Shown here: positions 5,161 through 62,821 of the stretch, piece by piece
How the letters are laid out: each line of letters opens with the position of its first letter
How positions within the stretch are numbered: position 1 is the stretch's first letter
Source: Mustelus asterias
Lineage: Eukaryota
NCBI RefSeq assembly: GCF_964213995.1
Contig: NC_135803.1
Location: 141,050,001 to 141,114,000 of the forward strand
Length of the DNA: 64,000 nucleotides
Reading direction: 5' to 3'
Program-made: the position numbers and the translations under genes
Notes under the pieces: model-generated
Database searches by the model: none
Seen by the model: the letters and a program-made list of their open reading frames with translations, nothing else
Told to the model about the DNA's origin: nothing

Positions 5161-8100
5161 GAAGCCCGCCAGCTGGATCCCCCATCCCCCGCCAGCTGGA
5201 TCCCCCATCCCCCGCCAGCTGGATCCCCCATCCCCCGCCAGCTGGATCCCCCGATCCCCCGCCAGCTGGATCCCCCGGCAGCTGGATCCCCCATCCCCCG
5301 CCAGCTGGATCCCCCATCCCCCGCCAGCTGGATCCCCCGATCCCCCGCCAGCTGGATCCCCCATCCCCCGCCAGCTGGATCCCCCATCCCCCGCCAGCTG
5401 GATCCCCCGCCCCTTGCCCACTAGAATTTGACGGGAAGGTCAGATTGAGAGTCCTTATCCCTAGGGGATTTTCCTCCGAAGACTGCCCTTTCTGTGGCCT
5501 TGTGGAGTCCGTGGACCATGTCTATGTTTTGTGTCTTAGACTGCACTCCCTTTTTGTTTTCCTAAAGAACCTTTTATTGATGTTCTGTTTGTGCTTCAGT
5601 CCCACGCTCCTGATCTACGGACACCCGGTGTGGAGAGGGGAGGGTCGGGATGGCGACCTCCTCGTGAACCTGTTCCTGGGCCTAGCGAAACGTGCCATTT
5701 ACTGGTCCAGGCAGCGGGCGATCGAGGGGGCCGTCCATCCTGACTGTCTGCCCCTCTACCGCGGCTACGTTCATGGCCAGGTGTCCCTGGAGAGGGAGCA
5801 TGCGGTGTCCACGGGCACGGTTGACGCCTTCTGCGCCCGTTGGGCACTGCAGGGGTTGGGGTGCGTTATTGACCCTGACAATCACATTTTAATTTGATGT
5901 TTTTAAGTTTCCTTTCTACTTTGATTTCTGTTCGGGCTGTACCCCCCTCCTTTTGGGGAGCTGCCCCTTTTGCTTTGTCCTGACTCAATCTGAATTTGTT
6001 TATTTGGTTTGACCTAAAAAGAGGCCTAGGGGATTTTCACAGTAACTTCATTGCAGTGTTAATGTAAGCCCACTTATGGCACTAATAAAATAGTAAGAAG
6101 TCTCACAACACCAGGTTAAAGTCCAACAGGTTTATTTGGTAGCAAATACCAGCAATGAGTATTTTAGAACAGAGACCACTCCATCTGACGAAGGAGCATT
6201 GCTCCGAAAGCTTATGGTATTTGCTACCAAATAAACCTGTTGGACTTTAACCTGGTGTTGTGAGACTTCTTACTGTGCTTACCCCAGTCCAACGCCGGCA
6301 TCTCCACATCATGACTAAAATAAACAGCCATTAAGGAGAGCGTGTTCAGCCTTGACCCTTTCGGTTGCATTATCCTCCTTAAACATGAATTTGGGGGATG
6401 GCCATCCCTTGGTGGATAGCACTTCCACCCTTTGCCTCAACAGGTTGTGGGTTCAACTCCACTCCACTACATGAATATGGCAATACGCAGTGGGCACCAT
6501 ACTGCAACACTAAGGGAGTTCTGCATTATTGGAGGTACTGTTTTTCAGATGAGAAATTAAACCAAGGTACCATCTGCACTCACAAATGGGTGTAAATGGC
6601 ATGGTGTCACAGTGGTTAACACTGCTGTTTCACAGCGCCAGGAACCTGGGTTCGATTGCTGGCTTGGCTCATTGGCTGGGTGGAGTCTGCACGTTCCCCC
6701 CGTGTCTGCGTGGGTTTCCTCCAGGTGCTCCGGTTTCTTCCACCGTCCAAAAGACGTGCTGGTTAGGTGCATTGGCCATGCTAAATTCTCCCTCAGTGTA
6801 CCCAAACAGGTGCCGGAGTGTGGTGACTCGGGGATTTTCACAGTAACTTCATTGCAGTGTTACTGTAAGTCTACTTGTGACGCTAATAAATAAACTTTAA
6901 AATATCCCATGCTATTGTTTTGAATACAACCAAGGAAGTTATCCCCAGTGTCCTGGCTAATATTTTTCCCTCAATTGGCATCACAAAACAGATTATTTAG
7001 GTCATTATCACCTTGAGGTTTGTGTGTGTTGCTGTGTTAAATTGATGGCTGTGTTTCCTACATTGAACAACTGTGACTACACTTCAAACAAAACTTTGGC
7101 TGTAAAGTGCTTGGGAATGTCTGCTAGTCGTGAAAGGCACTATATAAATGCAAGTCTTTCTTTCATTTAAAGGAAAGTTAGATAAGGTGATGAGGGAGAA
7201 AGGAACTGGATATGCAAACAGTGAGAGTAGGTAGGGTGGAAGGAGGTTTATGTAGAGTATTAATACTGGCACAGATCAGCTGGGCTGAACGGTCTGTACC
7301 CATGCTGTAAATTCTATGTAAATACAGAACAGTCACCATCGAATGGATTTAAAGCCTCACAAGAAAAGGCTCACCAGCATTGGACATATGGATTGTTTAG
7401 TCTAGAGACCCTCCAGCTGTTTAGGATGATGTGATGAGTGCTATACCACTAATGTGTTGTATAACAGAATGGAACAGCAGTAATAAGAGTATAATTTTGG
7501 AGTGCAGCCAATCTGAATAGTGCAGAATGAGGCAATGGGAAAATAGTCCATGAGGTTATCCCCTACAAAAACAAACTAATTGGGAAAAAATGCCTGCTTC
7601 TGTCCATTTAGATACTTATCTGTACACCATAATGCTCCACAATCTCAAGATGCAAAGAAAACTCAGGCCAATTTACGACGCTCTTATTCCTGAGATCAAT
7701 CTAGCCAGCCACTCGAAACTCTTGGTAATAATTTGAAAAGTTACCTTTTGGGTTGCATCAAAAAGGAATCTGTGGAGTCAGGGGAAACAGACTGCTGGTC
7801 TGTATTATTTCTTCATTGCGTGCAGAGTTGAGAAGCTGCAGGAAAAAAGGCGCTGTAACTATCATCAATATTTGCACATTCAAGTTCAAGTAAAATGATA
7901 TTTAAAAGTCCTGTGAAACTAAAATTAGTTAAATATCTTATTCAATGTATATGTTGCATCTACATGCACTGCAGTGTGATTGTTGAGATGACAGCAAATT
8001 TTGCTCCACCCTACAAGGTTCTCCTTAGATCTGGGCGCTTGTGCCAAAATTGAGAGAGCTGCCTCTCAGACTAGTCAAGTAGCAGCTTGCATAGTTGTAC

Positions 8101-11100
8101 TGATGGAATCGTACCGTACAATATCTCAGGCACCACCATCACTATCCCTGGGTATGTCCTGTCACACCAGTGTGGGACACCTGCAGAAGGTGTGGCACAG
8201 TGTTATACAGTCAGCAGGGGGCTGTTTTGGGGTGTCCTCAACATGACTCCAGATCCCATGAAGTCTTATGGCATCAGGTCAAATATGGACAAGGAAACCT
8301 GCTGATCACCGTGTTCCAGCACCCTGTGGTGCACCCCCCCCCCCCCCAACCCCGCCTAAGCTGATGAATCCGTACTCCTCAAAGTTGAACATCAGTTGGA
8401 GGATGCACTGAGGGTGGCAGGGACGCAGAATATACTGTGGGCCTGGGTCTTCAGTACTCATCAAGAGTAGCTCAGTGGCACCATTACTGTTTATTTTGAA
8501 GTTTGTTTATTTATTAGTGTCACAAGTAGGCTTACATTTACACTGCAATGAAGTTACTGTGAAAATCCGCTAGTCGCCACAGTCCGACGCCTGTTCGGGT
8601 ACACTGAGGGAGAATTTATCATGACCAATTCAGCTGACCTGCACATCTTTAGACTGTGGCGGAAAACCGGAGCATCCGGAGGAAACCCCCACAGACATGG
8701 GGAGAATGTGCAAACTCCACACACAGTGACCCAAGCTGGGAATCGAACCCGGGTCCCTGGTACTGTAAGGCAGCAGTGCTAACCGCTGTGCCACCGTGCC
8801 GCCCCTAAATCAAAGTGGAGACTGTGAGCATTCCGACCGAGCTGGTTGAGTTCTAAAGGACATAACTACTAGACTGGGTGCATGGCAGATGAAGTAACCA
8901 TCAAGGAGGAAAAACATATTTGACCTCTTCCTCACCAACCTGTCTGCTGCAGATGCATCTGTCCATGACAGTATTGGTACGAGTGACCAGTGCACAGTCC
9001 TTATGGAGACAACGTTTGTCTTCACACTGAGGATACCCTCCATTGTGCTGTGTGACACCACTACCGTGCTAAATGGGATAAACTTTGTATAGATCAAGCA
9101 ACTAGAGATTGGGCACCCATGAGACACTCTGGGGCAGCAACAGAGTTGTACTCAACCACAATCTGTAACTTCAAGGCCTTCCATATCCCCCTGGTCAATC
9201 CTGGTTCAATGAAGAGTGCAGGAGGGCATGCCAGGAGCAGCATCAGGCATCCCTAAAATTCAGTTGTCAATCTGGTGAAGCTACAACACAGGACTGTATT
9301 GTATCATTGTTTGAGTGCATAATGCATCTTGTTAATTTGCTTAATCTACATAATTTATTTTCCTTTGTAGGACTACAAGGGACAACAATTAGCAGAGCAA
9401 ACTTTTCAACGTGTAATTGTTGCATCCGCTGTAAGTATGCTTATTTTTAAAGTTGAAGACAATTTGGCCTTTAATTTGAAATTACAGTATTTATTTTCTT
9501 TGATAGATTATTGGCTTCATTTATGGTTACATGATTGAGCAGTTTGGATGGACTGTTTACATTGTTCTGGCTGGTTTTGTCATTTCATGCTTGGTAAGTT
9601 ATAGAAATGATCTTCAATTGATTATTGTAATTGCAGCTTATTGTGTAGTTTTTTAAAAGTTATTTTTGTGCAGTAACAAAATAAGTAACTTTGCTTCAAA
9701 GCAAAAATCCAAATTTTGATGATTTTCAGTTCAATCAATATACACAACAAAAATGTTAATTTATCTGGTCTTGCTGTTCAGTTTCAACACATTTAAGAAG
9801 AAAAAACCTTTGGTATTTTCTACATATTTGAGTTTTTAAATGTTCCTTAATGTGTATCTTAAGAATCATTTGAAGACTACCATCAGTAGCAGTGTGTAAC
9901 TATTACATATAGGCTAAATCATCTCAGATTTGGTTTGTGTTCTGTACTTCTGGTTGAGCTTTCAGCTAAGGTGGCAGGAGGGAGTTAACTCAAAATATAT
10001 GACCCCAAATAATACCCCAGTTTCAGGAAAATAGGGAAGAAAACTACATAAAAGTTATTGAGAAATAACAACACCGAACAGGCCATTTGGAACGACCAGT
10101 TCATATTGCTACGTGCCCTCCACCACACAAGTAGTCGTCCCGTTTGCCTATCCTGTTGCCATATCTCTCTTCAAATTTTCATTCACCTTTCTAACCTATT
10201 CTTAAATATTGACATGGTCTCTGCTTCAGTTATTAACAGTAAGAAGTTTAACAACACCAGGTTAAAGTCCAACAGGTTTATTTGGTAGCAAAAGCCACAC
10301 AAGCTTTCGAGGCTCTGAGCCCCTTCTTCAGGTGAGTGGGAATTCTGTTCACAAACAGAACTTATAAGACACAGACTCAATTTACATGAATAATGGTTGG
10401 AATGCGAATACTTACAGCTAATCCAGTCTTTAAGAAACAAAACAATGGGAGTGGAGAGAGCATCAAGACAGGCTAAAAAGATGTGTATTGTCTCCAGACA
10501 AGACAGCCAGTGAAACTCTGCAGGTCCACGCAACTGTGGGAGTTACAAATAGTGTGACATAAATTCTGATTCTAGGATCGCATGATAAAGACTCAGGAGG
10601 AAAAAAGCAGAAATATTTATGTGAAATAGTGTGACATAAACCCAATATCCCGGTTGAGGCCGTCCTTGTGTGTGCGGAACCTGGCTATCAGTTTCTGCTC
10701 CGCGACTCTGCGCTGTCGTGTGTCGCGAAGGCCGCCTTGGAGAACGCTTACCCGAATATCAGAGGTCGAATGCCCGTGACCGCTGAAGTGCTCCCCAACA
10801 GGAAGAGAACAGTCTTGCCTGGTGATTGTCGAGCGGTGTTCATTCATCCGTTGTCGCAGCGTCTGCATAGTTTCCCCAATGTACCATGCCTCGGGACATC
10901 CTTTCTTGCAGCGTATCAGGTAGACAACGTTCTCCAAGGCGGCCTTCGCGACACACGACAGCGCAGAGTCGCGGAGCAGAAACTGATAGCCAGGTTCCGC
11001 ACACACAAGGACGGCCTCAACCGGGATATTGGGTTTATGTCACACTATTTCACATAAATATTTCTGCTTTTTTCCTCCTGAGTCTTTATCATGCGATCCT

Positions 11101-14100
11101 AGAATCAGAATTTATGTCACACTATTTGTAACTCCCACAGTTGCGTGGACCTGCAGAGTTTCACTGGCTGTCTTGTCTGGAGACAATACACATCTTTTTA
11201 GCCTGTCTTGATGCTCTCTCCACTCCCATTGTTTTGTTTCTTAAAGACTGGATTAGTTGTAAGTATTCGCATTCCAACCATTATTCATGTAAATTGAGTC
11301 TGTGTCTTATAAGTTCTGTTTGTGAACAGAATTCCCACTCACCTGAAGAAGGGGCTCAGAGCCTCGAAAGCTTGTGTGGCTTTTGCTACCAAATAAACCT
11401 GTTGGACTTTAACCTGGTGTTGTTAAACTTCTTACTGTGTTTACCCCAGTCCAACGCCGGCATCTCCACATCAGTTATTAACTCCAGTGGTGAATTTCAG
11501 TCTGTCATCCCTCTTGTTCGACATTGATCAAGCACTACTAATAGTTGAACACTACTGAAAATCCTTTAATAATTTTAAACCCCTTTGTCAAAGTGCCCCA
11601 TAATCTACTTTATTCCAATAAAACCATTTTTTTCTCATCTTTTTGTTCATTTGTATTTTCCATGCCAGGCAACATCCTGTACACTCCTTATTGCCTCAAC
11701 GTTCGTTCTGTAGTGTGGAGTGCAGTGCAGAACAGAACACATATTCCAACTGGGGATTTCCTATGGTTCTGTATAAATCATCATTTTATAGACTTTTATA
11801 AGCAATACCATTTGCTATAAATTAGAATATCCCTTCAGCTTTTCAATGCCCTTACTCAGTTGAAGAACTATTTCTAAATTCTTGTGAAGCGGAACTCTTA
11901 AATCCTTCTGCTCTTTTTGTATCACCCAGCTTTGCTAGCTGCCACTTTTAATTAGTTCTAGCCATTACTCACCCCATATATGTACATGAATGTAACAGCC
12001 TACATGCATTCCCTTTTCTCCATTTTCTCCCTTCCTCTAAAATCTCAAAACAATAATTTCATCTGATTTTTCCTTTTTCATTTCCATACTTTTTAAAACA
12101 TAATTTATAGGATGTGGGCTTTGCTGGCTATGCCAGCATTTACTGCCCATCCTAATTGCTCTTCAGATAGTGATGAGCTGCCTTCAACCGCAGCAGTCTG
12201 AGGTGTAGTTCATCCAAGGTGCTGCTGGGGAGGGAATTCAGGATTTTGACCTAGTGACAGTGAAGGAATAGTGATATATTTCCAAGTCAGGATGATGAGC
12301 GACTTGGAGGGGAACTGCCAGGTGGTGGTGGTGTTCCAATGTTGAATGTTTATGAAATGAGTAGCAATCAAGTGAGCTTCTTTGTCCTGTATGGCTTCTT
12401 GAGTGTTGTTGGAGCTGCACTCATTCAGGCATATGGAGAGTATTCCATCAAACTCCTGACTTTAGAGTCATAGAGATGTACAGCACAAAAAGAGTCCCTT
12501 TGGCCCACCATGTCTGTGCTGCCAACGAACACCTATCTATTCTAATCCCATTTTGCAGAACCTGGACCGTAGAGTTGTGGCCAGGCTTTGGGGGCTCAAG
12601 AGGTGAGTTACTTCTGCAGCATTCCTAGCTTCTGGCCTCTTGTAGCCACAGTACTTAAATGGTTAGTGTAGTTGAGTTTCTGGTCAATGATAACCCCAGG
12701 ATGTTGATCGTGGTGAATTTGGTGATGGTAATGCCATTGAATGTCAAAAGAGTGATGGTTGGATTCTCTTTTGTTGGAGATGGTCACTGCCTGGAACTTG
12801 TCAGCCCAAGCCTGGATATTGTCCAGGTCTTGCATTTGGATGTGGACTGCTTCAGTATCTGAGGAGTCGTGAATGGTAGTGAACATTGTGCCATCATCAG
12901 CGAACATCCCACCTCTGACCCTATGATGGAAGGTCATTGATGAATCAACTGAAAATGGTTGGGCCGAGGACACTAGCCTGAGGAACTCCTGCAGCTGAGA
13001 TAATTGACCTCCAACCATCTTCCTTTAGGAACATAGGAATTAGGAGCCGAAGTAGGCAAATTCAGCCCTTCCAGCCAGCTCCATTATTCAGTCAGATCAT
13101 GGCTGATTGTGTCAGGTATTACTCCAACCAGGGGAGGGCTTCCCCCTGATTTTCATTGACTTTAGTTTTGCTAGGACTCCTTGATGCCATATTCGGCCAA
13201 ATGCTGCCTTAGTATCAAGGGCAGTCACTCTCACCTCTGGTGTTCAGCTCTTTTTGTCCATTTTTGAACCAAAGCTGTAATGAGGAGCCAAGTCATCTTG
13301 GCGGAACCCAAACTGACTGTACTTGAGCAGGTTATTGGTGAGGAAGTGCCATTAATGACCCCTTCCATTACTTTACTGATTGAGAATAGACTGGGGCGGT
13401 AATTGGCCAGGTTGGATTTGTCCTTGTGGACAGGACATACCTAGGCAATTTTCCACATTGCTGTGTAGATGCCAGTGTTGTAGCTCTACTGAGACAACTT
13501 GGCATGGGGTGCAGCAAGTTCTGGAGCGCAAGTTCTCAAGGCTATTGCTGGAATATTGTCAGGGCCCATTGCCGTTGCAGTATTCAGTGCTTTCAGCTGT
13601 TTTGTTGATATATGGAGTGAATCATATTGGTTGAAGATTGACATCTGTGATGCTGGGGACCTCAGTAGGAAGCTGTGATAGATCATCCACTCAGCACTTC
13701 AGGCTGAAGATTATTGTGAATGCCTCAGTCTTGTCTTTTTGCACTGATGTGCTGGGCTTCTCCATCATTAAGGATGAGGATATTTGTGGTGCCTCCTCCT
13801 CCATTCATAGCTGGCTGTGGCAGGACTGCAGAGCTTAGATATGATGCAAATAAACTTCATCTGTCTCTATGTTTCTACTCCTGCCCCTTCCTAACTTACA
13901 TGACTTTTCATTTATCGATTCATCTATCTTGCTAATGAATTGGTCCACTATGGGATTGGGCTGGGAGTTAAATGAAATCTTTGCTGAATCTTCAGATGAT
14001 CTGAAGATTCAGCAAAGAGCTATCTATTTTTCACAAGTATTGCACATTGGAAAAAATGAGCAAATTTGTAATTTCATAAATTATTCCTTAAACTTGTGCA

Positions 14101-14649
14101 TTTATTGTATTCAATTATTGTTTTGTTTACTGTAACTATTAAATGTGATAGATATTTTTGGGGGAGCTTGATTGAAGCTGAAATAATTAAGTCAGCTTTT
14201 TACTCCTAGTTACTACCTCCTCTACATGGTTAAAAATTCAAAAATCTTTAAACAATTAGAATATGTATAAAATTTCTACAATATTAGCTACAATAATCAT
14301 TTGTGCTTTTATAAGACATCCAGATTGAGATCCTTTATAAAATTTTAGTTTATGTACCATTGCCACTGTGCTTTTGTCTGCCACTGGTCAGACTAGTTTG
14401 AAATAAGCTAATGATTTTAGAAATTTAACTTGTCTACATGCTATGTTAATTTGCTGTATCAGTTCTGGTTGGATATTTTAATACATGCAATAGTAGAGTA
14501 GCTTTTTTTTAACTAATATATTACATTTTCAGCTAACCCTCCCACCGTGGCCTATGTACCGTAATCACCCATTGAATTGGCAGCCGGAGTTACAGATTGA
14601 GGAGAAAAAGCAAACCGAATGTGTCAAGAAGCCAAAAAAGCATAAATAA
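5089..14649 (+). CDS. SPCS1: Signal peptidase complex subunit 1, complete; join(5089..5124,9371..9430,9507..9593,14533..14649), 99 aa
   Basis: Spliced translation [78 protein letters not shown]...KHK* matches the SPC12/SPCS1 family. All introns are GT..AG, phase 0. AATAAA at 14703. Confidence 0.96.
5165..5410. repeat. 23-bp minisatellite (GCCAGCTGGATCCCCCATCCCCC)n, about 10 copies
   Basis: Units start at 5168, 5191, 5214 and so on; one unit is shortened. Confidence 0.95.
5474..6024 (+). mobile_element. 5'-truncated Tx1/L1-clade LINE (ORF2 C-terminal CCHC zinc finger plus 3' UTR)
   Basis: [32 protein letters not shown]; 14-bp TSD CCTAGGGGATTTTC at 5460 and 6025. Confidence 0.82.
6092..6313 (+). 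mobile_element. Miniature PLE-derived fold-back element containing a hammerhead motif
   Basis: 60-bp perfect inverted repeat 6092-6151/6215-6274, followed by the same 3' tail as the 10.2-11.5 kb element. Confidence 0.85.
6181..6217 (+). ncRNA. Minimal type I hammerhead ribozyme motif
   Basis: CCAU-CUGACGA-A-GGAGC(AUU)GCUCC-GAAA-GC-UU-AUGG. Confidence 0.75.
6405..7164 (+). mobile_element. DeuSINE (SacSINE1-like) interrupted by a V-SINE at 6597-6900
   Basis: tRNA-like head, Deu-like CAGATGAGA..TTAAACC core, L2-type tail GTGAAAGGCACTATATAAATGCAAG. Confidence 0.65.
7960..9296 (+). mobile_element. Degraded LINE endonuclease-region fragment interrupted by a SINE (8500-8803)
   Basis: [39 protein letters not shown] remnants. 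Confidence 0.65.
9371..9430 (+). CDS. SPCS1: SPCS1 exon 2
   Basis: tgtag|GACTAC...GCT|gtaagt; [20 protein letters not shown]. Confidence 0.95.
9507..9593 (+). CDS. SPCS1: SPCS1 exon 3
   Basis: gatag|ATT...TTG|gtaagt; [29 protein letters not shown]. Confidence 0.95.
10236..11470. mobile_element. Penelope-like element with inverted pseudo-LTRs (fold-back) and GIY-YIG C-terminus
   Basis: Arms 10236-10746 and 10928-11438. Minus-strand [20 protein letters not shown] (GIY-YIG). TSD TCAGTTATTAAC at 10226-10237 and 11471-11482. Confidence 0.9.
11340..11376 (+). ncRNA. Minimal hammerhead ribozyme motif (mirror copy on - at 10298-10334)
   Basis: CAC-CUGAAGA-A-GGGGC(UCAGA)GCCUC-GAAA-GC-UU-GUG. Confidence 0.72.
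12105..13830 (-). mobile_element. Degraded non-LTR retrotransposon (RT and 3' tail)
   Basis: [32 protein letters not shown]; the same tail recurs near 18650, 24030 and 62350. Confidence 0.75.
14533..14649 (+). CDS. SPCS1: SPCS1 exon 4 (to stop)
   Basis: tttcag|CTAACC; [16 protein letters not shown]...KKHK*. Confidence 0.95.
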   Translation, partial: LTLPPWPMYRNHPLNWQPELQIEEKKQTECVKKPKKHK

Positions 14650-15544
14650 TGTCAAATTATTCTGCATACAGCCCCACATCTGATTTTTTTATTTCATGAC
14701 TTAATAAATGTTGCTGAATCAGAATGAATTGTGTTCAGTAAGTTTATGCAGTAATGATTGAGGGCATAGAGGTTCCTATGCCAGGACAAGTGAATTGGGT
14801 GACAATATTTTGAATAAGAGCAAGGAATCTATTTATTGGTCAAGCAACATCACTGGACCTGGTTATCATATTGTTGTTTAAGGGACCTTGCTGTATGCCA
14901 AGTGACTGCTGCATTTCCGACAGTACAACAATATGTACATTTCAAATTAAAAACTTAATTGGTTAGTGCTTTGATAAGCCTGGATGTCACAAAAGACACT
15001 GGGGGCGATCTTGCCGCCCGTTCATGCCACACTCCCGTTGCAGCGAAGGCGGAGAACTTGGCCATAAGTCAAATCTCCATTCACCGCAGTGGGATGGAAA
15101 AATCCCACTGGCATTAACGGTCAGAAAATTCCAGCCACTGTATTAAGTTTAACTCATTTCTATAATGGACTATGATTTTTAAAAAAGCACTTGAGACATC
15201 TTTTGGTTGTGGTAACACATTTCCTTCATGCTAATCTTACTTCAGTATATACTGTTTTTTTTGTTAATCTATTCATTTTCTTACATTCAGACACCATGTA
15301 ACTTGTAAATTGCAGAGATGCTATTGTTCCATTTGGGTGATAACCTCATTTAGCCTCAATGGCAGTAAAGATTTTAGAAATAATAATCTGAGAAAAAATT
15401 AAGTCACTTGGACAAGTGTACTAATTAAGGAAAATGAGTTAAAGAAAAATCATTTTTATTGAGATAACAGTTGATGTGTGTACTGACTTTCAAAAGACAT
15501 TTGGTAGAGTGTCACGTCATAGGTTTCAACTCTGCTGACAAGAT

Positions 15545-53100: not shown

Positions 53101-53645
53101 AGACTGGGATTGGGGATCAGTCTGGGATTGGGGATCAGGTTGGGATTGGGGATAAAGTTGGGATTGGGATCAATCTCTGATTGGATGTGAGACTGGGATT
53201 GGGGATCAGGTTGGGATTGGGGATCAGGTTGGGATTGGATGTGAGACTGGGATTGGGCATCAGGTTGGGATTGGGGATCAGGTTGGGATTGGGCATCAGG
53301 TTGGGATTGGGCATCAGGTTGGGATTGGGATCAATCTGGGATTGGATGTGACACTGGGATTGGGGATCAGTCTGGGATTGGGGATCAGTCTGGGATTGGG
53401 GATAAGGTTGGGATTGGGATCAATCTGGGATTGGATATGAGAGTGGGATTGGGGATCAGGTTGGGATTGGGGGTCAGGTTGGGATTGGGGATCAGTCTGA
53501 TCTCCGGCTCCGGCTCTGCCCCCCGGGCCGGGCCTCCCTGCCGCCTCCGGGCCGGTACCTGTTTCACCTCCTCGCCGTGTCTGACCAGCTGCACCTCCCC
53601 GTAGCTGCCTCTTCCCACCGTGCGGATAACCAGGTACCGCTCCAT
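20026..53645 (-). CDS. NEK4: NIMA-related serine/threonine kinase 4, complete; 16 coding exons, about 810 aa
   Basis: Kinase motifs [40 protein letters not shown]4-type C-terminal motifs [42 protein letters not shown]. All junctions are GT..AG and phase-consistent (2433 nt total). Adjacent to SPCS1 as in human. Confidence 0.95.
20221..20354 (-). CDS. NEK4: NEK4 exon 15
   Basis: [10 protein letters not shown]...[18 protein letters not shown]...RRE. Confidence 0.93.
20566..20771 (-). CDS. NEK4: NEK4 exon 14
   Basis: [18 protein letters not shown]...[11 protein letters not shown]...FRT. Confidence 0.92.
20931..21975 (-). mobile_element. Penelope-like element 3' part (GIY-YIG plus pLTR) interrupted by a SINE at 21540-21868
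   Basis: [11 protein letters not shown]|[17 protein letters not shown] reading across the insert; the SINE is flanked by TSD CAGGTA (21534, 21869). Confidence 0.88.
20993..21027 (-). ncRNA. Minimal hammerhead ribozyme motif (imperfect stem II)
   Basis: CAC-CUGAUGA-A-GAGGC(UGC)GCUCC-GAAA-GC-UA-GUG. Confidence 0.6.
22497..23200 (-). mobile_element. RTE-type LINE RT fragment
   Basis: QSRF..DMVF..VNREGLW..YRTDG.LFNL remnants. Confidence 0.7.
23615..23709 (-). CDS. NEK4: NEK4 exon 13
   Basis: [31 protein letters not shown]|gtgagt. Confidence 0.92.
24147..24489 (-). mobile_element. HE1/V-SINE-like tRNA-derived SINE with CR1-type tail (also near 19303, 21540, 40666, 43755, 50741, 51147)
   Basis: A/B-box head, GGGTTTCCTCCGGGTGCTCCGGTTTCCTCCCAC-type core, GGGCCGAATGGCCT..(TTCTATG)n tail. 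Confidence 0.85.
25902..26017 (-). CDS. NEK4: NEK4 exon 12
   Basis: (V)STSRRSS...CHGK|gtaatg; phase-compatible. Confidence 0.82.
26127..27920 (+). mobile_element. Rex1/Babar-type LINE, degraded RT and 3' end
   Basis: [52 protein letters not shown]; (TCAAA)n tail. Confidence 0.88.
28567..28633 (-). CDS. NEK4: NEK4 exon 11
   Basis: [22 protein letters not shown]. Confidence 0.92.
28780..29660 (-). mobile_element. L2-type LINE 3' fragment
   Basis: AAFDM..LL; [20 protein letters not shown]; AAGGTGCTATATAAAT tail. Confidence 0.78.
29911..30210 (+). mobile_element. Rex1-type 3' end fragment with an inverted tail copy at its 5' side
   Basis: Matches 27665-27920; 21-bp inverted repeat 29911-29931/30190-30210. 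Confidence 0.8.
30802..31164. mobile_element. hAT/Charlie-like non-autonomous DNA transposon (MITE); partial second copy near 29700-29860
   Basis: Termini CAGTGCTTTTCAAA..TTCGAAACACACTG; degenerate 8-bp TSD TTCTAGTG/GTCTGGTG. Confidence 0.65.
32114..32266 (-). CDS. NEK4: NEK4 exon 10
   Basis: [13 protein letters not shown]...IGASQ|gtttgt. Confidence 0.82.
32629..32769 (-). CDS. NEK4: NEK4 exon 9
   Basis: EEPPEN...[12 protein letters not shown]...IEK|gtaagg. Confidence 0.85.
32940..33006. repeat. 31-bp inverted repeat with a 5-nt loop
   Basis: Arms 32940-32970 and 32976-33006, 2 mismatches. Confidence 0.9.
33084..33140 (-). CDS. NEK4: NEK4 exon 8
   Basis: gacag|[19 protein letters not shown]|gtaagt; strong splice sites, in frame. 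Confidence 0.75.
35053..35466 (-). CDS. NEK4: NEK4 exon 7 (donor could instead be 35059)
   Basis: KEEKACQE...[20 protein letters not shown]|gtagga; open 414 nt. Confidence 0.8.
35670..38430 (-). mobile_element. Nested CR1 LINEs: an older copy interrupted by a SINE (36821-37073) and a younger CR1 (37143-38370)
   Basis: [33 protein letters not shown]; the younger copy closely matches 1420-2472. Confidence 0.9.
39224..39362 (-). CDS. NEK4: NEK4 exon 6
   Basis: KAMKTRKK...RKYIK|gtcaga; phase-compatible with exon 5. Confidence 0.8.
40183..40337 (-). CDS. NEK4: NEK4 exon 5
   Basis: [12 protein letters not shown]...ALFLEATK, 155 nt. Confidence 0.94.
41406..41513 (-). CDS. NEK4: NEK4 exon 4
   Basis: [36 protein letters not shown], 108 nt. 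Confidence 0.96.
41687..41998 (-). mobile_element. V-SINE with alternative tail (also near 3160, 6597, 8500, 31296, 36821, 55996, 57038)
   Basis: Same head and core; tail CTAGGGGATTTTCACAG..TTCATTGCAGTG..AATAAATAAACTTT. Confidence 0.85.
42603..42800 (-). CDS. NEK4: NEK4 exon 3
   Basis: [16 protein letters not shown]...NKPYNHK, 198 nt. Confidence 0.96.
43002..43466 (-). mobile_element. CR1-type 3' UTR/tail fragment
   Basis: GGGCCGAAGGGCCTGTTCC hairpin plus (TTCTTTG)-type tail. Confidence 0.65.
44148..44430 (+). mobile_element. Short PLE insertion (ORF fragment fused to pLTR)
   Basis: TSD TGAAGTTACAA at 44137-44147 and 44430-44440; pLTR matches the other copies. Confidence 0.82.
44518..44784 (-). 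CDS. NEK4: NEK4 exon 2
   Basis: YVVKKLNL...[10 protein letters not shown], 267 nt, AG/GT flanks. Confidence 0.96.
44930..45800 (-). mobile_element. Degraded CR1 3' fragment
   Basis: FADDTKL, KCEVIH-like, LEY..QFWSP remnants. Confidence 0.78.
47335..49510 (+). mobile_element. Decayed, internally deleted L1-type element (ORF1 remnant plus 3' end)
   Basis: Coiled coil followed by [17 protein letters not shown] (resembles the L1 ORF1p DLENRSRRNNIRIVGLPE motif); ends in TCAATAAAAATA. Confidence 0.65.
52145..52786 (-). pseudogene. Processed importin-alpha pseudogene (KPNA6/KPNA5-like), 5'-truncated and frameshifted, in NEK4 intron 1
   Basis: Intronless [12 protein letters not shown]...ALNGLE, then a frameshift to [36 protein letters not shown]...PMEGFQL*. 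The expected NILRLG segment is deleted. Confidence 0.92.
52960..53500. repeat. G-rich 18-bp minisatellite (GGGATTGGGGATCAGGTT-like)
   Basis: About 30 degenerate units built from 6-bp subunits. Confidence 0.95.
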
Positions 53646-53830
53646 TGCCGCTCAGCGCCGCTGCGAGGCTGCGGGAGGCCGCGGACACCCGGCGCTTTCC
53701 TCAGCGGCCTCTTCATTCATGTCTCAGCCGAGTCGGGTTACAGGAAATCGGTGCGAAACAGGCCGGAGCCCCGAAGCCGCTTCCCCATCGCCAGGCAACC
53801 GGGGCGGGGGGGGGGAGGGGGACAACCCGC
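53490..53830. promoter_or_regulatory. CpG island / NEK4 promoter and exon 1
   Basis: Very GC- and CpG-rich; GC-box-like GGGGCGGGG near 53801. Confidence 0.7.
53559..53645 (-). CDS. NEK4: NEK4 exon 1
   Basis: [29 protein letters not shown]|gtaccg. Confidence 0.93.
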
Positions 53831-54625
53831 AGCGGGCACGGTCCGCCAGCACCACCAGGAGGCCAGGCTGGGAACTGCAGCGGAACGGTCCGCCAGCACC
53901 ACCAGGAGGCCAGATTGGGAACTACACCGGGCACGGTCCGCCAGCACCACCAGGAGGCCAGACTGGGAACTGCAGCGGAACGGTCCGTCAGCACCACCAG
54001 AAGGCCAGACTGGGAACTGCAGCGGAACGGTCCGTCAGCACCACCAGGAGGCCAGACTGGGAACTGCAGCGGAACGGTCCGTCAGCACCACCAGGAGGCC
54101 AGGCCGGAACTGCACCGGGCACGGTCCGCCAGCACCACCAGCAAGCCAGGTCGGAACTGCACCAGGCACGGTCCGGCAGCACGATCAAGAGGCCAAGCTG
54201 GCAACCGCAGCAGGCACGGTCCTCCAGCACCACCAGGAGGCCAGACTGGGAACTGCAGCGGGCGCCGTCCTCCCGCACCATCCGGAGGCCAGGTCGGGAA
54301 CTGCAGCGGGCACGGTCCGCCAGCACCACCAGGAGGCCAGGCCGGGAACTGCAGCGGCACTGTCCGCGCGCACTGTCCGCCAGCACCACCAGGAGGCCAG
54401 GCCGGGAACTGCAGCGGAACGGTCCGTCAGCACCACCAGGAGGCCAGGCCGGGAACTGCAGTGGGCACGGTCCGCTAGCGCCACCAGGAGGCCAGGCCGG
54501 GAACTGCAGTGGGCACGGTCCGCTGGCGCCACCAGGAGGCCAGGCCGGGAACTGCAGTGGGCACGGACGTCAGCGCCACCAGGAGGCCAGACTGGGAACT
54601 GCAGCGGGCACTGTCCGCCAGCACC
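53828..54625. repeat. 47-48-bp GC-rich minisatellite, about 16-17 copies; resumes at 55629-55793
   Basis: GGTCCG registers at 53840, 53887, 53935, 53982; core CAGCACCACCAGGAGGCCAG..GGGAACTGCAG. Confidence 0.95.
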
Positions 54626-55628
54626 TTCTTCAGGTGAGTGAGGAGTTGTATCCACAAACAGGGCATATAAAGACACAAACTCAATTTACAAGATAATGGT
54701 TGGAATGCAAGTCTTTACAGGTAATCAAGTCTTAAAGGTACAGACAATGTGAGTGGAGAGAGGGTTAAACACAGGTTAAAGAGATGTGTATTACAGCTGC
54801 AGTATTACACATCTCTTTAACCTGTGCTTAACTCTTTCTCCACTCACATTGTCTGTACCTTTAAGACTTGATTACCTGTAAAGACTTGCATTCCAACCAT
54901 TATCTTGTAAATTGAGTTTAAGACCATAAGACATAGGAGCGGAAGTAAGGCCATTCGGCCCATCGAGTCCACTCCACCATTCAATCATGGTTGATTTCAA
55001 CTCCATTTACCCACTCTCTCCCCATAGCCCTTAATTCCTCGAGAAATCAAGAATTTATCAATTTCTGTCTTGAAGACGCTCAACGTCTCGGCCTCCACAG
55101 CCCTCTGTGGCAATGAATTCCACAGACCCACCACTCTCTGGCTGAAGAAATTTCTCCTCATCTCTGTTCTAAAGTGACTCCCTTTTATTCTAAGGCTGTG
55201 CTCCCGCGTCCTAGTCTCCCCTGTTAATGGAAACAACTTCCCTACGTCCATCCTATCTAAGCCGTTCATTATCTTGTAAGTTTCTATCAGATCTCCCCTC
55301 AACCTCCTAAACTCCAATGAATATAATCCCACGATCCTCAGACGTTCATCGTATGTCAGGCCTACCATTCCTGGGATCATCCGTGTGAATCTCCGCTGGA
55401 CCCGCTCCAGTGCCAGTATGTCCTTCCTGAGGTGTGGGGCCCAAAATTGCTCACATTTGTGTCTTTATATGCCCTGTTTGTGAACAGAACTCCCACTTAC
55501 CTGATGAAGGAGCAGCGCTCCGAAAGCTAGTGGCTTGTGCTACCAAATAAACCTGTTGGACTTTAACCTGGTGTTGTGAGACTTCTTACTGTGCCCACCC
55601 CAGTCCAACGCCGGCATCTCCACATCAT
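54624..55628. mobile_element. Fold-back PLE pLTR pair interrupted by a CR1 3' fragment (54920-55455)
   Basis: Inverted arms around a short loop near 54794-54800; the right arm resumes at 55456 and ends with the hammerhead motif and tail. Confidence 0.85.
55498..55532 (+). ncRNA. Minimal hammerhead ribozyme motif
   Basis: UAC-CUGAUGA-A-GGAGC(AGC)GCUCC-GAAA-GC-UA-GUG. Confidence 0.72.
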
Positions 55629-58039
55629 CGCCAGCACCACCAGGGGGCCAGGCCGGGAACTGCAGTGGACATTGTCTGCCAGCACCACCTGGAGGCCAGG
55701 CTGGGAACTGCAGTGGACATGGTTCGCCAGTACCAACAGGAGGTCAGGCTGGGAACTGCAGTGGGCACGGTCCTCCAGCACCACCAGGAGGCCACAACAA
55801 GAACAGAAAAGGCTGGAAAATTTCAGCTGGTCTGACAGCATCTGTGGGCAGAGAATAGAGCCAACATTTCGAGTCAGGGTGACCCTTAGTCAGAGCTCCG
55901 ACGCAACAAGAACAAACGCAGCCACTAGACCCACATCCTAGGGGAGAGCCCCAAGGTCAAGCCCTTTGCTCCAGCCTAAGCCCACCCGACCTGAGGTTAA
56001 AGTTTATTTATTGGTCACAAGTAAGGCTTACATGAACACTGCAATGAAGTTACTGTGAAAATCCCCTAGTCGCCACACTCCGGCGTCTGTTCGGGTCAAT
56101 GCACCCTAACCAGCATGTCTTTCAGACTGTGGGAGGAAATAGCAGACACGGGAAAATGTGCAAATTCCACACAGACAGCGACCCAAGCTGGGAATTGAAC
56201 CCAGGTCCCTGTGAGGCACCAGTGCTAACCACTGTGCCACCGTGCAGCCCCAGAAGAAAGGATCTCCAGGTCCTTTAGGGGACCCTTCCTCTGCAGCCTG
56301 GCCGCAGCAAAGGGCACATGGGCACACCACCTACCCCCCCCCCCCCCCTCACTGGAGTGCAAGGCGCCAGGTCCATGCTTGTCAGGACCTGCATCAAAGC
56401 CCGCTCGGTGGGCTTCCTGCACCAAAGCCCGCTCGGTTTGCTTCCTGCTGGGGAGGGGGTGGGGGGTGGATTGCCAATGCAGGAGGTCGCTGAATTGGGC
56501 TTCCAAGCTGCTAATTAAATATCTTTGAGGGATTTTGAATATTCACTGGGTTCCTGCCCGCTCTGAGTGGGAACCACGTTGGGGAACATCGTGACAGGTT
56601 TGCTGCCCGATAGGAATCCCGTTTTAGGCCCAATGCCTGATTGAACGAACCATCAAGATTCCCATCGGGGCTAACAGGCCTGGTGAATCCCAGCCAAAAT
56701 CTGGTCATAATTTGAGTAGAAAATTCCAAATGGATACAATTAAAAAAGTTGCCCCAATGCTGAGATCTACAATCAAAATATCTCAGCTACAAACAGAAAT
56801 ATTAATAAACTTTGAACCTGGTTAGAAAAATGCAGGGAAACTGATTATTAACAATTTTGGAGAAGAACATAGGATATTTTGCTTGAAAAAATTATCTTCC
56901 ACCTAAACAGCAGAAACATTTAACACAACAGTGCCAAATCATAGGCAAGTAGAATGATCATTGAGAGAAAAAGAGGTATAAATGACTACAAGGCAGCCAA
57001 AGAAAGGGAAGTAAGAATCAAACAAAAGTATTAATATGGGCGGCATGGTGGCACAATGGTTAGCATTGCTGCCTCACAGGGACCCACGTTTGATTCCCGG
57101 CTTGGGTCACTGCCTGTGCGGAGTCTGCACATTCTCCCCGTGTCTGTATGGGTTTCCACTGAGTGCTCCAGTTTCCTCCCACAGTCTGAAAGACATGCTG
57201 GTTAGATGCATTGGCCATGCTAAATTCTCCTTCAGTGTAACCCGAACAGGTGCCAAAGTGTGGCGACTAGGGGGATTTCATTGCAGTGATTTCATTGCAG
57301 TGTTAATGTAAGCCTACTTGTGACACTAATAAATAAACTTTAGATGTTAGAAATCTAAATTATGAACCAAATTCACACATGGGAGAATGTAAACAGGTAA
57401 GATTTCACCCCTATATTAGATGACTTAGGCCACAAGGATATTAAGGGATCTTGAACAGCCGCCGGTGATCTCGAGGACAGGGAGTGTGGGCTTAAGATCC
57501 CGTCCTATGTCATTCCAGTTATCAGAAAACAAATGTTCATTTTACTCAGTGTGGGCAACTGTATAATGCCAACATACTGAATGCATATGTATGAGTGTCT
57601 GGAGCACATGAATCTCAACATGGGGGGAGGAAACAGCAGAATTCCATGCGAGAGAATGAATGATGGACACAGAAGTGACAAGTTTGTTTAAAATGAACAT
57701 GGTGAATTTATTATTGGCGTATTCTGTGTATATTGCTAGATCAGATACATTGGATTGCACAAATGCAGCGTTTTTCTGGAATCAGATCCATCAGACTCAC
57801 TTGCCCTTGTCTCTTGTCAGGTGCCTTCTTGTCATTCCATTGCTTACACACAGAATAAATTTGGCCATTTGACATAAAGAGATTCCAGTTTAAAGGAACA
57901 ACTGAATTTATTTGAGGAAACTGGAAACACTTGTAGATGTACAATTTTCAACCTATATTCAATTGACATATGAAGTGATTGAACAATAAAGCTATGCAAA
58001 TGATACTAAAGGGATAATCTTTCACCATCTGCTCTCGGA

Positions 58040-58184
58040 TTACGCAGGTAGTGAATCAAATAAAGAAGGAACAACGTAGTCAGTGGGAATTCCGTCAAAA
58101 ACTCCTTTCCCGCTGTAGTGGACCAACCAGCATGGGATATTGGTACCTCGCCTTGGATCAAATCTGTAATCTTTCTGGTATCCC
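58040..58184 (-). CDS. ITIH-like terminal exon
   Basis: GYQKDYRFDPRRGTNIPCWLVHYSGKGVFDGIPTDYVVPSLFDSLPA*. Confidence 0.92.
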
Positions 58185-61100
58185 CTAAAATTAAAAATAT
58201 CAATAAAATGAATGTAAGAAACATGCAGAGAAATTACAATATTAAATAGACATGATGTGGAGATGTCGGCATTGGACTGGGTGGGCACAGTAAGACGTCT
58301 TCACCTGATGAAGGAGAAGTGCTCTGAAAGCTCGTGATTCTAAATAAACCTGTTGGACTTTAACCTGGTGTTTTGAGACGATATTAAACAGCACACATCG
58401 AAAATGTTAACACTACCTTAAAAATCTTACCTTGTCACCCCGAGTTTGTGGCCCTGTACAATCATTGTCGTGTCAGGTTTGCCTTGATCTGAGCTCAGGT
58501 GTTCCTCGGTACTTATTTCATGGTAAAACTGGCCTGTGTCAAAATAAGGATGAATTAAGACGACTGGAAAGTCATGAGCGCAGGCAGGATATGCAAGAAG
58601 AGTAAGGAAAACTTAGTTTGTTCCATCTGTGAAGATGACCTAATTATTCATTAGGGGTGAATGAGTTATAGAAACATAGAACTCAGGAGTAGGCCATTCA
58701 GCCCTTCGAACCTGCTCCACCATTCATTTTGATCATAGCTGATATTCAATATCCTGTTCCCCCCTTCCCCCGTATCCCTTGGTCCCTTTAGCCCCAAGAG
58801 CTAAAGAGTTTAGAAGCAGTTGCTTGATTTTGTAATTAAACCAAGAATTTCAGTTTTCTTTGTAGTGTAATTCATTGGCTTGTGCAAGAACTTTGGTGGT
58901 AGTCTAGTTTGGTATAAAATTAATGTAAACTTTGGAATAGATATTCCCAAAAATGATAGCAAAATAATAATTTCTGTTTGGTAGGAGTCCTGGAATTGAA
59001 ATCTCCGTAACCAGGATAAAGTATTCTTTTCACTTTCCCCCCCCCCCCCCCACAAATGAGTGATTTAATTAGTCATAGAGGTATACAGTACAGAAAAAGG
59101 CCCTTCAGCCCATCATGTCTGTGCCAATCAAAGACAGACCACCTAACTATTCTAACCCCATTTTCCAGCACTTGGCCCATGGCCTTGACATCGCAAGTAT
59201 ACATTTAAGTACGTCTTAAATGGGGTATGAGGGTCTCATAATGATGTGAATATTTACTCTCTGGACTATTCTGTAACACTAAACGGAATAGATGCTGCCT
59301 AATTCACAGTCTGTTACAGTGAAGGATGCAAATTACTGCTCTTGGGACATATATTCTGCAGCCATTACTAAATATGATACTAGAATATTATAAGCTTTTG
59401 ATGCAAAGGTATTTATAAAAGCACTTCACCATTGTACAAAAGCTATATCTCCCTTTAGAGTGGCTCAATGTTTAACTATGACTTTACAGGTAATAGAGTG
59501 AATGTGCTACTTACCGAGTAACCCATGGGTCATATTAGAGAGCCTGTGGCTGTCATGTGTATAAAATCCCAGGAAGTGTCTGTGTACAGGACGATGTTTC
59601 CTCACCCGATGCAGCAGAATAACAAATGTTGCAGCATCGTCCATTGTCAGTGTGAGGTTCCTGTTTTTTACGATGGAAATCGAGAAACTAGGAAATGGAT
59701 ATTAGAGATGATGAATTAGGCAGTTTCGAAACATTGATATCCTGAATATTGAATTAGCATAAATAAAGTTCTCAAAATTGTCCATTTTAGAAACCCATTT
59801 TCAGGAGGTGCCATTCAGTTAGTCTATCGTTCTTATATCGATCCTTCCAGATAGCAAGACCAAAGCAGATGCTGGCTACGCAACCCTCTCTTGTCACACT
59901 GGCAGGTCCAAAGAGCTCTTTGGCCTCAGACTACATTCCTATATTTATCAATTTTGCTTCCAATTTCCACTCCTCTATCCCCCTCACATGGTCTATCTCT
60001 GACACTTCTCTTCCCTTCCTTGACCTCTCCGTCTCCATTTCTGATGATAAACTGTCCACCAGTATCCATTACAAACCACTGACTCCCACAATTACCATGA
60101 CTACAGCTCTTCACACTCCACATCCTGTAAGGATTCCATCCCATTCTCTCAGTTCCTTCATCTCTGCCACATCTGTTCAGATGATGCCACTTTCCAAAAT
60201 AGCGCTGTCAATATGTCTTCCTTCTTCCTCAATCATGGTTTTCCACCCACTGTGGTTGACAGGGTTCATGACTGCGTCTGACCCATTCCCCGGGCCACTT
60301 CTCTCACCCCCTCCCCTCCCTCTCGGAATCAGGATAGGGTCCCCTTATCCTCACCTTTCACCCCACCAGCCTCCGCATTCAAAGGATTCCGCCATTTCCG
60401 CCAACTCCAGCATAATGCCACCACTCAAACACATCTTCTCTTCACTCCCCCTGGTCAGCATTCCTTAGGGGCCATTCTCTCCAGGACACCCTGGTCCACT
60501 CTTCCGTCACACCCAACACTTCAGCCCCTGCTCATGGCACCTTCCCATGCAATCATTGAAGGTGCAACACCTGCCTCTCTACCTCCTCCCTGCTCACCAG
60601 CCCAGGTCCTAAGCATTTCACATGCACCTTCCTCAATCTGGTCTATTGCATTTGCTGCTCCCAATGCAGTCTACTCTACATTGGAGAGACCAAACACAGA
60701 CTGGGTCACTGTTTTGCTGAACACCTTCAGTCCATCCGCAAGGAGGACCCAGACCTTCCTGTGGCTTACCACTTCAACACACCACTCTTGTCCACATATC
60801 TGTCCTTGGTCTTTTGCAATGTTCTAGTGAACCCCAATGCAAACTGGAGGAACAGCACCTCATCTTCCGATTGGGCACTTCACAGCCTTCTGGACTGAAC
60901 GTTGAGTTCAACAATTTTAGAGCATGAACTCTCCCCTCCACCTTCACCTCATTTCTATTTATTTGATTATATTTCGTTTTTTCATCTCATTCATCCATTT
61001 TTACCATCCTTCTTTCTCTCTTCTTTTTTTCCACTTCTCCATTTCCGCTCTCCTTCTTGCTCCCCCCCCCCCCCCCAGCTTCAGGCCAATTGCCTTAACC

Positions 61101-62821
61101 ATCTGTACCGCCATTCATACATTCTGATCTCTTAATGGACACTTTTAACACATTTCTCAGCCATCTTCATCCTCATTTACATTCCCTTTGTCCTTTTATA
61201 GCCCCCCCACTCTCATTGTATATATATTTTTTGATTCTCTTTGCCCTTAGCTCTGACAAAGGGTCATCCAGACTCGAAACGTTGGCTCTATAAGATTTGC
61301 ACTCCATCTGACGAAGGAGCAGCGCTCCGAAAGCTAATGGTATTTGCTACCAAATAAACCTGTTGGACTTTAACCTGGTGTTGTTAAAACTCTTGCTCTA
61401 TTCTCTCTCCACAGATGCTGTCAGACCTGCTGAGATTTTCCAGCATTTTCTGTTTTTGATTCGTATATTCCTGTTTTTCCATCTAGGAAGTAGGCTACTG
61501 GGCATTCTCCATCCGACCTCTTCTTTCATGCTCCATGCAAGATTCACTGACTCTGTGAAGCACATCTTTGAAGATGCACTATCAGTGCTACTTTAAAATG
61601 CCACGCTCTGTGTGGGACTTCAGATGTGACTCAAAACGGAATCTGAAAGAGTAACTGGCCATCGGAGCAGATATACGGAGGGAGAAGAAAGTTGCAAAGG
61701 AGAGAAAAGCCCAGCATCCTGAAAGCAGGGAGGACTGTTCCTGATACAACATCTTACCAACATTAATGTCAAGCAAGTATGAAAGATACTCTTACCCAAA
61801 TCCTAGTAGAGCAACATGAACATTGAATTATGTCATCATTTGTTGTAAGGAGAGTGGTTTAGGACATTTCTAAAAGCTGTGATAAAGCATTATAAAAGTT
61901 TCTTTTAAAATATTCATCATCCCAATTTTTTTCACAGAATTGTTACAGTACAAAAAGGAGGCCATTCAGCCCATCGTATCCACGTCAGCTCTCCGAATGA
62001 TCATGTCATCAATCTCCTGTCATCTTCCTGTAACCCTGCATATTTTTCTTTTCAAATAATCATCTAATTCTCTCTTGAATTTCTCAGTTGAACCTGCCTC
62101 CACCACACTCTCAGTCCAGACCCTAACCATTTGCTGTGTGAAAATGTTATTTTGTTATCTCTCATCTCGCTTTTGTCAATTACTTTAAATCAGTGCCCTT
62201 TCATTCTGAAAAGACTCTCAATCGGATTAACTTTCCTCGGGTATCTGATATTGACTCTTCGCTTAGTTTTGTTATTACAATAATATTGCAATTCTGCCTG
62301 ATGTGTGATATTAGTATTTTTGCAAACTTTATTTCATTATATGCTTTTTTTTATTCATTCGTGCAACATGGGCATCGCTGGCTGGGCCAGCATTTATTGC
62401 CCATCCCTAGTTGCCCTTGGAGGGCAGTTGAGGGTCAACCACATTGCTGTGGCTCTGGAGTCACATGTAGGCCAGACCAGGAAAGGACGGCAGATTTCCT
62501 TCTCTAAAGGATATTAGTGAACCGGATGGGATTTTCCGACAATCAACAATGGTTTCATGGTCATCAGTGTTGGTCACCCAACTGGTTTTTGATGTTGCTG
62601 TGTAATTGATAACCCATACCTCACACTTGTTAAAGATGCTGTTGCAGACCAGGGGAAAGTATGCGTCCCTTCTCCATGAATAAGTGTAATTGTTTGTGTC
62701 GATACTTCAACTTTCACACCCGTCTTCTTACTCACAATTCCAAACTTCCCAAAGTGTATGTTTACTTTCTTGTTGGTTACAGCTGCCTGCTCTCCAGTCA
62801 ACTGTCCATTTACCACAAGGC
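58040..62821 (-). CDS. Inter-alpha-trypsin inhibitor heavy chain (ITIH3-like), last four coding exons; complement join(62620..62821,59515..59687,58431..58533,58040..58184); 5' part lies beyond the window
   Basis: ITIH C-terminal domain: GLVVNGQL..FGKFGI..; TFVILLHRV..HRHFLGFY..THGLLG; QFYH..KPDTTMIV..VTR; GYQKDYR..CWLVH..DYVVPSLF*. Splice phases are consistent. Paralog identity is not resolved. Confidence 0.9.
58251..58380. mobile_element. Tiny PLE remnant (inverted tail plus hammerhead pLTR end) in the last ITIH intron
   Basis: Candidate TSD ATATTAAA at 58239 and 58381. Confidence 0.75.
58301..58337 (+). ncRNA. Minimal hammerhead ribozyme motif
   Basis: UCAC-CUGAUGA-A-GGAG(AAGUG)CUCU-GAAA-GC-UC-GUGA. 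Confidence 0.68.
58431..58533 (-). CDS. ITIH-like exon
   Basis: QFYHEIS...GHKLGVT|gtaaga. Confidence 0.9.
59515..59687 (-). CDS. ITIH-like exon
   Basis: FSISIVKNRN...FLGFYTHDSHRLSNMTHGLL|gtaagt. Confidence 0.92.
59930..61460 (+). mobile_element. Second PLE family, degraded RT C-terminus plus GIY-YIG and 3' end
   Basis: FINFASNFH..TWSISDTSLPFLDLSVSI..HYKP; NLVYCI..LYIGETK..FAEHL; the 3' end carries a hammerhead-like motif. Confidence 0.82.
61304..61340 (+). ncRNA. Minimal hammerhead ribozyme motif
   Basis: CCAU-CUGACGA-A-GGAGC(AGC)GCUCC-GAAA-GC-UA-AUGG. Confidence 0.75.
62620..62821 (-). CDS. ITIH-like exon
   Basis: LVVNGQLTGE...WSATASLTSV, AG/GT flanks. Confidence 0.88.

Follow-up and report, generated by a model that had tools for sequence, protein, structure and literature searches.

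Minimal hammerhead motifs in the pseudo-long terminal repeats of Penelope-like retroelements of the shark Mustelus asterias, and what their insertion junctions may record

The stretch of Mustelus asterias DNA analysed here (contig NC_135803.1, positions 141,050,001 to 141,114,000; 64,000 nucleotides, hereafter the window) holds the host genes SPCS1 and NEK4 and, scattered along it, short motifs with the features of hammerhead ribozymes together with fragments of Penelope-like elements (PLEs), retroelements with a reverse transcriptase (RT) and a GIY-YIG endonuclease whose open reading frame (ORF) lies between pseudo-long terminal repeats (pLTRs). An earlier note on this DNA, made from the letters alone, had listed 13 such motifs in at least three lineages, and all 13 lie where it placed them, its minus-strand positions being the low ends of the motifs. 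The three lineages are borne out as family A, in which the loopless palindromic stem III is AGCU, family B, in which it is ACGU, and a third type represented by the copy at 50005. Positions within the motif follow hammerhead numbering, in which G8, G12 and H17 are required. The features, with all hammerheads and cuts predicted, are as follows.

5089 to 14647, plus strand: host gene SPCS1; exons 2-4 match PF06645
20029 to 53645, minus strand: host gene NEK4; coding exons mapped with a Mustelus asterias protein, one exon 100% identical
6181 to 6217, plus strand: intact family A hammerhead (CCAU/AUGG, AGCU), cut after 6213; SPCS1 intron 1, sense
6092 to 6151, minus strand: inverted partner arm of the 6181 insertion, its 5' end 1 nt beyond the cut
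10236 to 11473: young two-arm inverted PLE insertion, 99.7-100% identical to the full-length element, with a target duplication around GTTATTAAC; SPCS1 intron 3
10298 to 10334, minus strand: intact family A (subfamily A2) hammerhead of its left arm
10617 to 10931, minus strand: 3' end of the PLE ORF, GIY-YIG endonuclease (PF01541, E 4.5e-5)
11340 to 11376, plus strand: intact family A (A2) hammerhead of the right arm, cut after 11373, AATAAA at 11392; sense to SPCS1
20992 to 21028, minus strand: family A hammerhead with a stem II mismatch, at the 3' end of a truncated PLE; NEK4 intron, sense
21240 to 21548: endonuclease remnant of that truncated PLE
44338 to 44373, plus strand: family A copy, broken (C3 to G); antisense to NEK4
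55497 to 55533, plus strand: intact family A hammerhead with two G.U pairs in stem I
58301 to 58337, plus strand: family A hammerhead with weakened stem II (G.U at 10.1-11.1)
61304 to 61340, plus strand: intact family A hammerhead in a ~105-bp insertion (61293-61397, duplication GCTCTAT) inside a family B pLTR
61249 to 61288, plus strand: family B (ACGU) hammerhead, broken (G8 to A)
55858 to 55898, minus strand: family B copy, broken (G8 to U, palindrome lost)
4200 to 4238, minus strand: family B-like copy, degenerate
30351 to 30385, minus strand: family B-like copy (AGUU/AACU), degenerate; NEK4 intron, sense
50004 to 50039, minus strand: imperfect candidate hammerhead of the third repeat family (AAGCUU palindrome, 2-bp stem II); NEK4 intron 1, sense
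59959 to 60800, plus strand: degenerate RT thumb, zinc-finger linker and GIY-YIG of a second, probably Neptune-type PLE, parent of family B (26-47% to P0020, the full-length element's protein)

The motifs, their lineages and their numbers

We searched the window with a strict descriptor that calls for the core, a stem I of at least 3 bp, a stem II of at least 3 bp with a Watson-Crick first pair, a palindromic stem III and any H17 but G. It gives 6 matches, against a mean of 0.005 in 200 dinucleotide shuffles, only one of which had a match. Seven copies had been called intact in the earlier note, and five of these (6181+, 10298-, 11340+, 55498+ and 61304+) pass a tighter test, whereas 20993- and 58301+ do not: both keep the core, but in the former the second stem II pair is an A.C mismatch and in the latter G.U replaces G10.1-C11.1. 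The five represent four independent insertions, 10298- and 11340+ being the arms of one. The six copies labelled degenerate are indeed all broken or imperfect. All four ACGU-family copies are damaged in core or palindrome (G8 to A at 61249; G8 to U and AUGU at 55858; AUGU at 4200; ACAU at 30351), and the 44338 copy has C3 changed to G. The proposed density of one motif per 5 kb therefore stands, at 13 per 64 kb, when broken copies are counted, and is overstated for intact ones, of which there are only 5 per 64 kb.

Covariation of the stems between subfamilies, also proposed earlier, was recovered. Across 12 of the 13 copies (10298 was omitted as a duplicate) 88% of stem cells are paired and seven of eight pairs are changed on both sides, a score reached by none of 500 shuffles and compared with 25-44% pairing in slid controls; the structure was read from these same sequences and the changes amount to a few subfamily events, below R-scape grade. 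In 51 copies not chosen by their core, G10.1 is present every time, C11.1 in 41, H17 is never G, and the expected extra nucleotide between 9 and 10.1 is A in 50.

Genome-wide, exact core patterns, which check neither stem I nor H17, were counted across 3.68 Gb. Subfamilies A1 and A2 account for 52,205 and 40,714 matches and family B for 1,999 with a 6-base loop and 16 with a 7-base loop, giving at least 94,934 exact cores, or about one per 39 kb; reversed-pattern controls returned 0 every time. This is among the densest loads of a ribozyme motif that we found reported in the literature examined. The corresponding figures are ~4,000 for the coelacanth and ~9,000 for Xenopus (PMC4209133), search methods and assemblies differing. 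Fifty-two arbitrarily placed 10-kb stretches contained 36 family A 3' anchors, 10 of them with a fully intact motif (10 per 520 kb), 14 family B anchors with no intact motif, and 8 exact pattern matches where 13 were expected. The window is above average, with 9 anchors and 5 intact motifs in 64 kb.

The dispersed copies show no sign of protection. In the 51 copies not chosen by their core, the invariant core differs in 21 of 561 cells (3.7%) and the flank in 37 of 1,683 (2.2%), both rates being limited by fuzzy matching; the cores decay like their flanks, neutrally. Where subfamilies differ, they do so at N7, at H17, in loops and at paired sites of the stems, a pattern indicative of selection on source elements.

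Judged by sequence, the motifs are genuine minimal type I hammerheads of the known PLE kind, here in a shark. The motif class, the extra A and the palindromic stem III are already published for PLEs (PMC4209133), and the shark motifs share with those described there the type I layout, the full core, the extra nucleotide between 9 and 10.1, G10.1-C11.1, the palindromic 15.2-16.2, a stem I of 4-5 bp, the many consensus families, and the occurrence mostly as single truncated copies with a few pairs ~3 kb apart and some pairs on opposite strands. The minimal, dimer-type architecture supposed by the earlier note is likewise supported; PMC4209133 established it for PLE hammerheads of metazoans. Stem II is 5-6 bp here, as against 7-8 in Schistosoma. 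No shark term was found in the two supplementary files of PMC4209133 that were searched.

The 50005 type has one homologue, at 82% identity, among the loci that we retrieved. Two copies of its repeat family were seen (window 50004-50075, minus strand, and retrieved locus L135:2348-2442), with a TATAAA box and a candidate hammerhead that has a 6-nt AAGCUU palindrome, a 2-bp stem II and no extra A.

The parent elements

The origin in PLE pLTRs supposed by the earlier note was established by full-length elements that encode RT and GIY-YIG and carry the hammerheads, and to which arms in the window are 99.7-100% identical. The arms of the 10236-11473 insertion form one 511-bp inverted repeat, 99.8% identical. 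A protein search of the genome scored 150 matches, nearly all at 99% identity, out of 85,139 first-look candidates. Three of four loci retrieved (L071, L072 and L074) have the order pLTR-ORF-pLTR with two identical hammerheads 3,097 bp apart, and in the fourth one hammerhead is inverted. The ORF product (P0020) is 893 amino acids long and contains an RT (PF00078, E 6e-10) with a DKG motif, a C-x4-C-x2-C linker (CHSNLCKTC) and, at its C-terminus, a GIY-YIG with CCHH. The hammerhead lies ~285 nt past the stop codon, and its predicted cut is followed by AATAAA after 18 nt and by the ATG after 100 nt. Element 3' ends are of two classes, one at CTTAC and one with a tail of ~35 nt ending at the ATG. 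Insertions show target duplications of 7-12 bp together with PLE tails. The main family belongs to a very young element. Each copy represents the 3' module of an insertion that is truncated at its 5' end and often consists of two inverted arms.

Family B has the same geometry as family A, its hammerhead sitting behind a decayed RT and GIY-YIG whose remnant linker reads CNH*RCNTC. Both elements appear to be of Neptune type, Neptune being favoured over Nematis by motif and host range. With the Neptune clade as described in PMC8557442 the full-length element shares the RT with DKG, a CX2-5CxxC linker, the C-terminal GIY-YIG with CCHH, partial tandems, inverted truncated arms and a 30-40 bp tail; the inverted arms and the two classes of 3' end match the PLE structure given there and in PMC11167929.

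Several further arrangements were observed. One family A insertion lies inside a family B pLTR (window 61249-61460), just past the latter's hammerhead and with a 7-bp duplication; comparable A-in-B insertions occur at retrieved loci L035, L046 and L139. An inverted PLE pair at window 54620-54920 ends inside a hammerhead. At window 44152-44211, 60 bp of the PLE ORF start are fused 5' of a pLTR fragment within one duplication-flanked insertion. The same pLTR with variants of the family A hammerhead was found in contigs of two other organisms (runs X23 and X1; probe 11200-11475), so that the family is shared among related species.

We consider it highly probable that the motifs are minimal type I hammerheads in the pLTRs of Neptune-type PLEs, maintained by selection on source elements and carried as passengers by the dispersed copies. 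Under this proposal the pLTR promoter would start RNA ~5-9 nt before the ribozyme, which would place the hammerhead at the head of the element RNA, with the start codon 100 nt further on. Base-pairing between the palindromes (AGCU or ACGU) of two hammerheads, which either share one tandem transcript or are assembled by the element protein, would lead to cutting after NUH. A fraction of templates would be cut in vivo, and this is the weaker step. RT starting at the CTTAC end or at the tail end would then run off at the start site or at the cut, and two arms would be joined by microhomology with the loss of a few bases. Selection on source elements would yield the compensatory stems between subfamilies, and dispersed copies would be passengers that decay neutrally without acting on host RNA.

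The closest functional comparison is with PAc, a Poseidon element of the green anole (PMC11167929), for which protein-assisted cleavage and extension of both target strands are established. The shark elements resemble it in the pLTR hammerhead, in two RT start sites bounding an optional tail and in the extension of both target strands. PAc belongs to the Penelope/Poseidon clade and its ORF starts inside the ribozyme, whereas the ORF of the Neptune-type element here begins 100 nt past the cut, with the tail ending at the ATG.

Insertion 5' ends and the predicted cut

The function of PLE hammerheads has been called unclear (PMC8557442), and they have been described as lacking in vivo evidence (PMC4209133). 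A young family with more than 90,000 exact cores lets cleavage be read from insertion junctions at single-base resolution, with no bench work. Starts no more than 12 nt before C3 were found in 34 of 46 core-selected B copies and in 14 of 62 A copies (14 of 43 without the 19 from ORF-selected loci). These starts lie 25-30 nt past a TATA-like box, and transcription probably begins just before the ribozyme.

Junctions were counted genome-wide with a pattern of three non-consensus letters, one free base and then the element. In the ATGG subfamily there are 205 junctions at -6 and 724 at the predicted cut. The count at +25 is 72, where ~315 would be expected at an equal rate; it covers the TAAAACT group only (14 of 24 such copies), with a pattern five letters longer. 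The A2 subfamily has 1,410 junctions at the predicted cut. At the free base before the A2 cut the consensus T occurs in 15 of 61 retrieved junctions (25 of 100 among the matches listed), as compared with consensus bases in 46 of 72 and 12 of 20 junctions at control positions, indicating that the step is one base sharp. Two-arm inversions make up 51 of these 61 junctions; for 40 of the 48 that could be measured, the partner arm stops 3' of the cut. Finally, three of the 12 joints listed among contigs of run X19 connect 11410-11412, ~14 nt past AATAAA, with 11374 through a bridge of 8-9 A. Position 11374 is the base that immediately follows the predicted cut, and such joints would result from a template jump or from a ligated circle; run X19, of unrecorded kind, is possibly not independent of the assembly.

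We lean towards the view that the shark genome records cutting by the ribozyme in vivo, insertions with starts 4-9 nt before the core being derived from uncut RNA and those with starts at the scissile bond from cut RNA. What is new is that many shortened copies begin at the predicted cut and may be a fossil record of ribozyme action in vivo. If so, tens of thousands of near-identical copies form a natural data set on the role of PLE hammerheads. In the open-licence literature that was searched, we found no report of PLE insertion junctions at a hammerhead cut.

A number of observations weigh against this view or against the proposal as a whole. The comparison with Rfam that the earlier note had suggested gave 13 matches at E<=10, none of them to a hammerhead; Rfam hammerhead models expect a full stem III. 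When six copies were folded as dimers, the double hammerhead as designed came out 10-24 kcal/mol above the most stable dimer structure in every case. By these models the geometry would be compatible with self-cleavage of dimers, though not as the lowest-energy fold, and the energies agree with PMC4209133, where activity in vitro was reported to be low. PAc did not need cleavage in order to insert in vitro, and RNA sequencing of the anole gave no reads that end at the cut (PMC11167929), whereas in the shark the number of insertion junctions rises there. In the junction counts themselves, only four positions were sampled in one subfamily and one in the other, and very short insertions may be rare for other reasons. 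The largest count, 1,515, is at +6, although inversion hot spots and further subfamilies contribute to it. Among 79 unselected copies only 4 have their end at -1 to +2, and in this small sample the -1 to +9 bin, with 7, is not clearly above its neighbours (4, 4, 1, 3 and 5). The consensus T stands at -1 in 5 of 10 non-inverted A2 junctions, and at many A2 junctions a G that follows AAAA is also present in the partner arm. A tandem joining poly(A) to the cut was absent from the retrieved loci and from 81 cut-site junctions (61 A2, 20 A1); it is therefore rare, being seen in the three run X19 contigs alone, and no pile-up of ends was listed for that run.

Several of these observations speak for an alternative in which the fold is kept in source elements but cuts rarely or never in vivo, the excess of junctions near the cut arising from microhomology and template switching between the two arms, or from RT that pauses at a helix's 3' edge. 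The predominance of two-arm inversions at the A2 cut, many with the shared G, fits this alternative, and we regard it as a serious contender that falls short of being probable. It does not readily account for the low count (205 at -6) at the edge of stem II, the strongest helix, for the scarcity of the consensus T before the A2 cut relative to the control positions, for partner arms that mostly end 3' of the cut, or for three contigs that connect an A-run to the exact cut base. Cleavage in vivo is, by a small margin, the reading that we prefer.

At retrieved loci L178, L180 and L215, two arms with ends at or close to the predicted cut enclose 30-45 nt of foreign or distant sequence.

Other origins, host genes and neighbouring repeats

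Most B copies and many A copies are short with a common start, as would be expected from a short independent transcript, and might be non-autonomous tandem retrozymes or a family resembling short interspersed elements (SINEs) and not truncated PLEs. Non-LTR retrozymes (bioRxiv 10.64898/2026.07.22.740005) also carry PLE-derived type I hammerheads in vertebrates, and one chondrichthyan was included in that survey; they are tandem non-coding repeats, whereas the shark copies are scattered ends of PLEs. The window has no tandem arrays of the motif; its copies are dispersed or in inverted pairs, their lengths grade into ORF-bearing copies at 99-100% identity, and they show the 7-12 bp target duplications and tails of PLEs. 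We therefore judge this origin improbable.

Several copies lie sense to host precursor messenger RNAs (pre-mRNAs), as the earlier note had pointed out. SPCS1 introns hold two of them (6181+ and 11340+) and NEK4 introns three (20993-, 30351- and 50005-). Exon 1 of SPCS1 probably lies at 5089-5124, on the strength of an ATG, a GT donor and likeness. The orientations hold; the effect on the host that the note had hinted at finds no support. That such copies cut or regulate host pre-mRNA might be suggested by two intact AGCU copies standing sense in one SPCS1 transcript, 5.2 kb apart. However, in the predicted fold the 11340 copy is fully paired to its own inverted (left) arm, and the 6092-6151 arm takes the 3' strand of stem I and the AAUAAA of the 6181 copy. 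Cross-pairing of stem I between the two fails at the closing pair in one direction (C.A). All three sense copies in NEK4 are damaged, the core decays as the flank does, and the copies are young insertions of a family of tens of thousands. Because each of the two intact sense copies is base-paired in that fold to an inverted arm of its own insertion, lacks a compatible dimer partner and belongs to a family in neutral decay, a host effect is unsupported, and we think it very unlikely. Masking of the ribozyme and the poly(A) signal by the inverted arm in host introns may explain why genes tolerate these copies.

Chance matches to a short motif are refuted for families A and B by the shuffles, the reversed patterns and the covariation, with nothing in their favour there, and even with the loose 50005 core, which arises 0.02 times per shuffled window, this explanation has a negligible probability.

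Among the neighbouring features, an intronless importin-alpha-like fragment of 166 amino acids (Arm repeat, E 6e-36) at window 52348-52848, minus strand, lies in NEK4 intron 1 and resembles a retrocopy. A 47-48-bp tandem repeat upstream of the NEK4 start (window 53830-54625 and 55580-55800) is broken up by PLE ends, and tandem repeats of 18 bp (52860-53530) and 23 bp (5138-5450) lie just within the first introns of NEK4 and SPCS1, respectively. About 12 copies of an abundant SINE-like family (180-300 bp) and many fragments of long interspersed elements, unrelated to the hammerheads, are spread over window 3174-57300.

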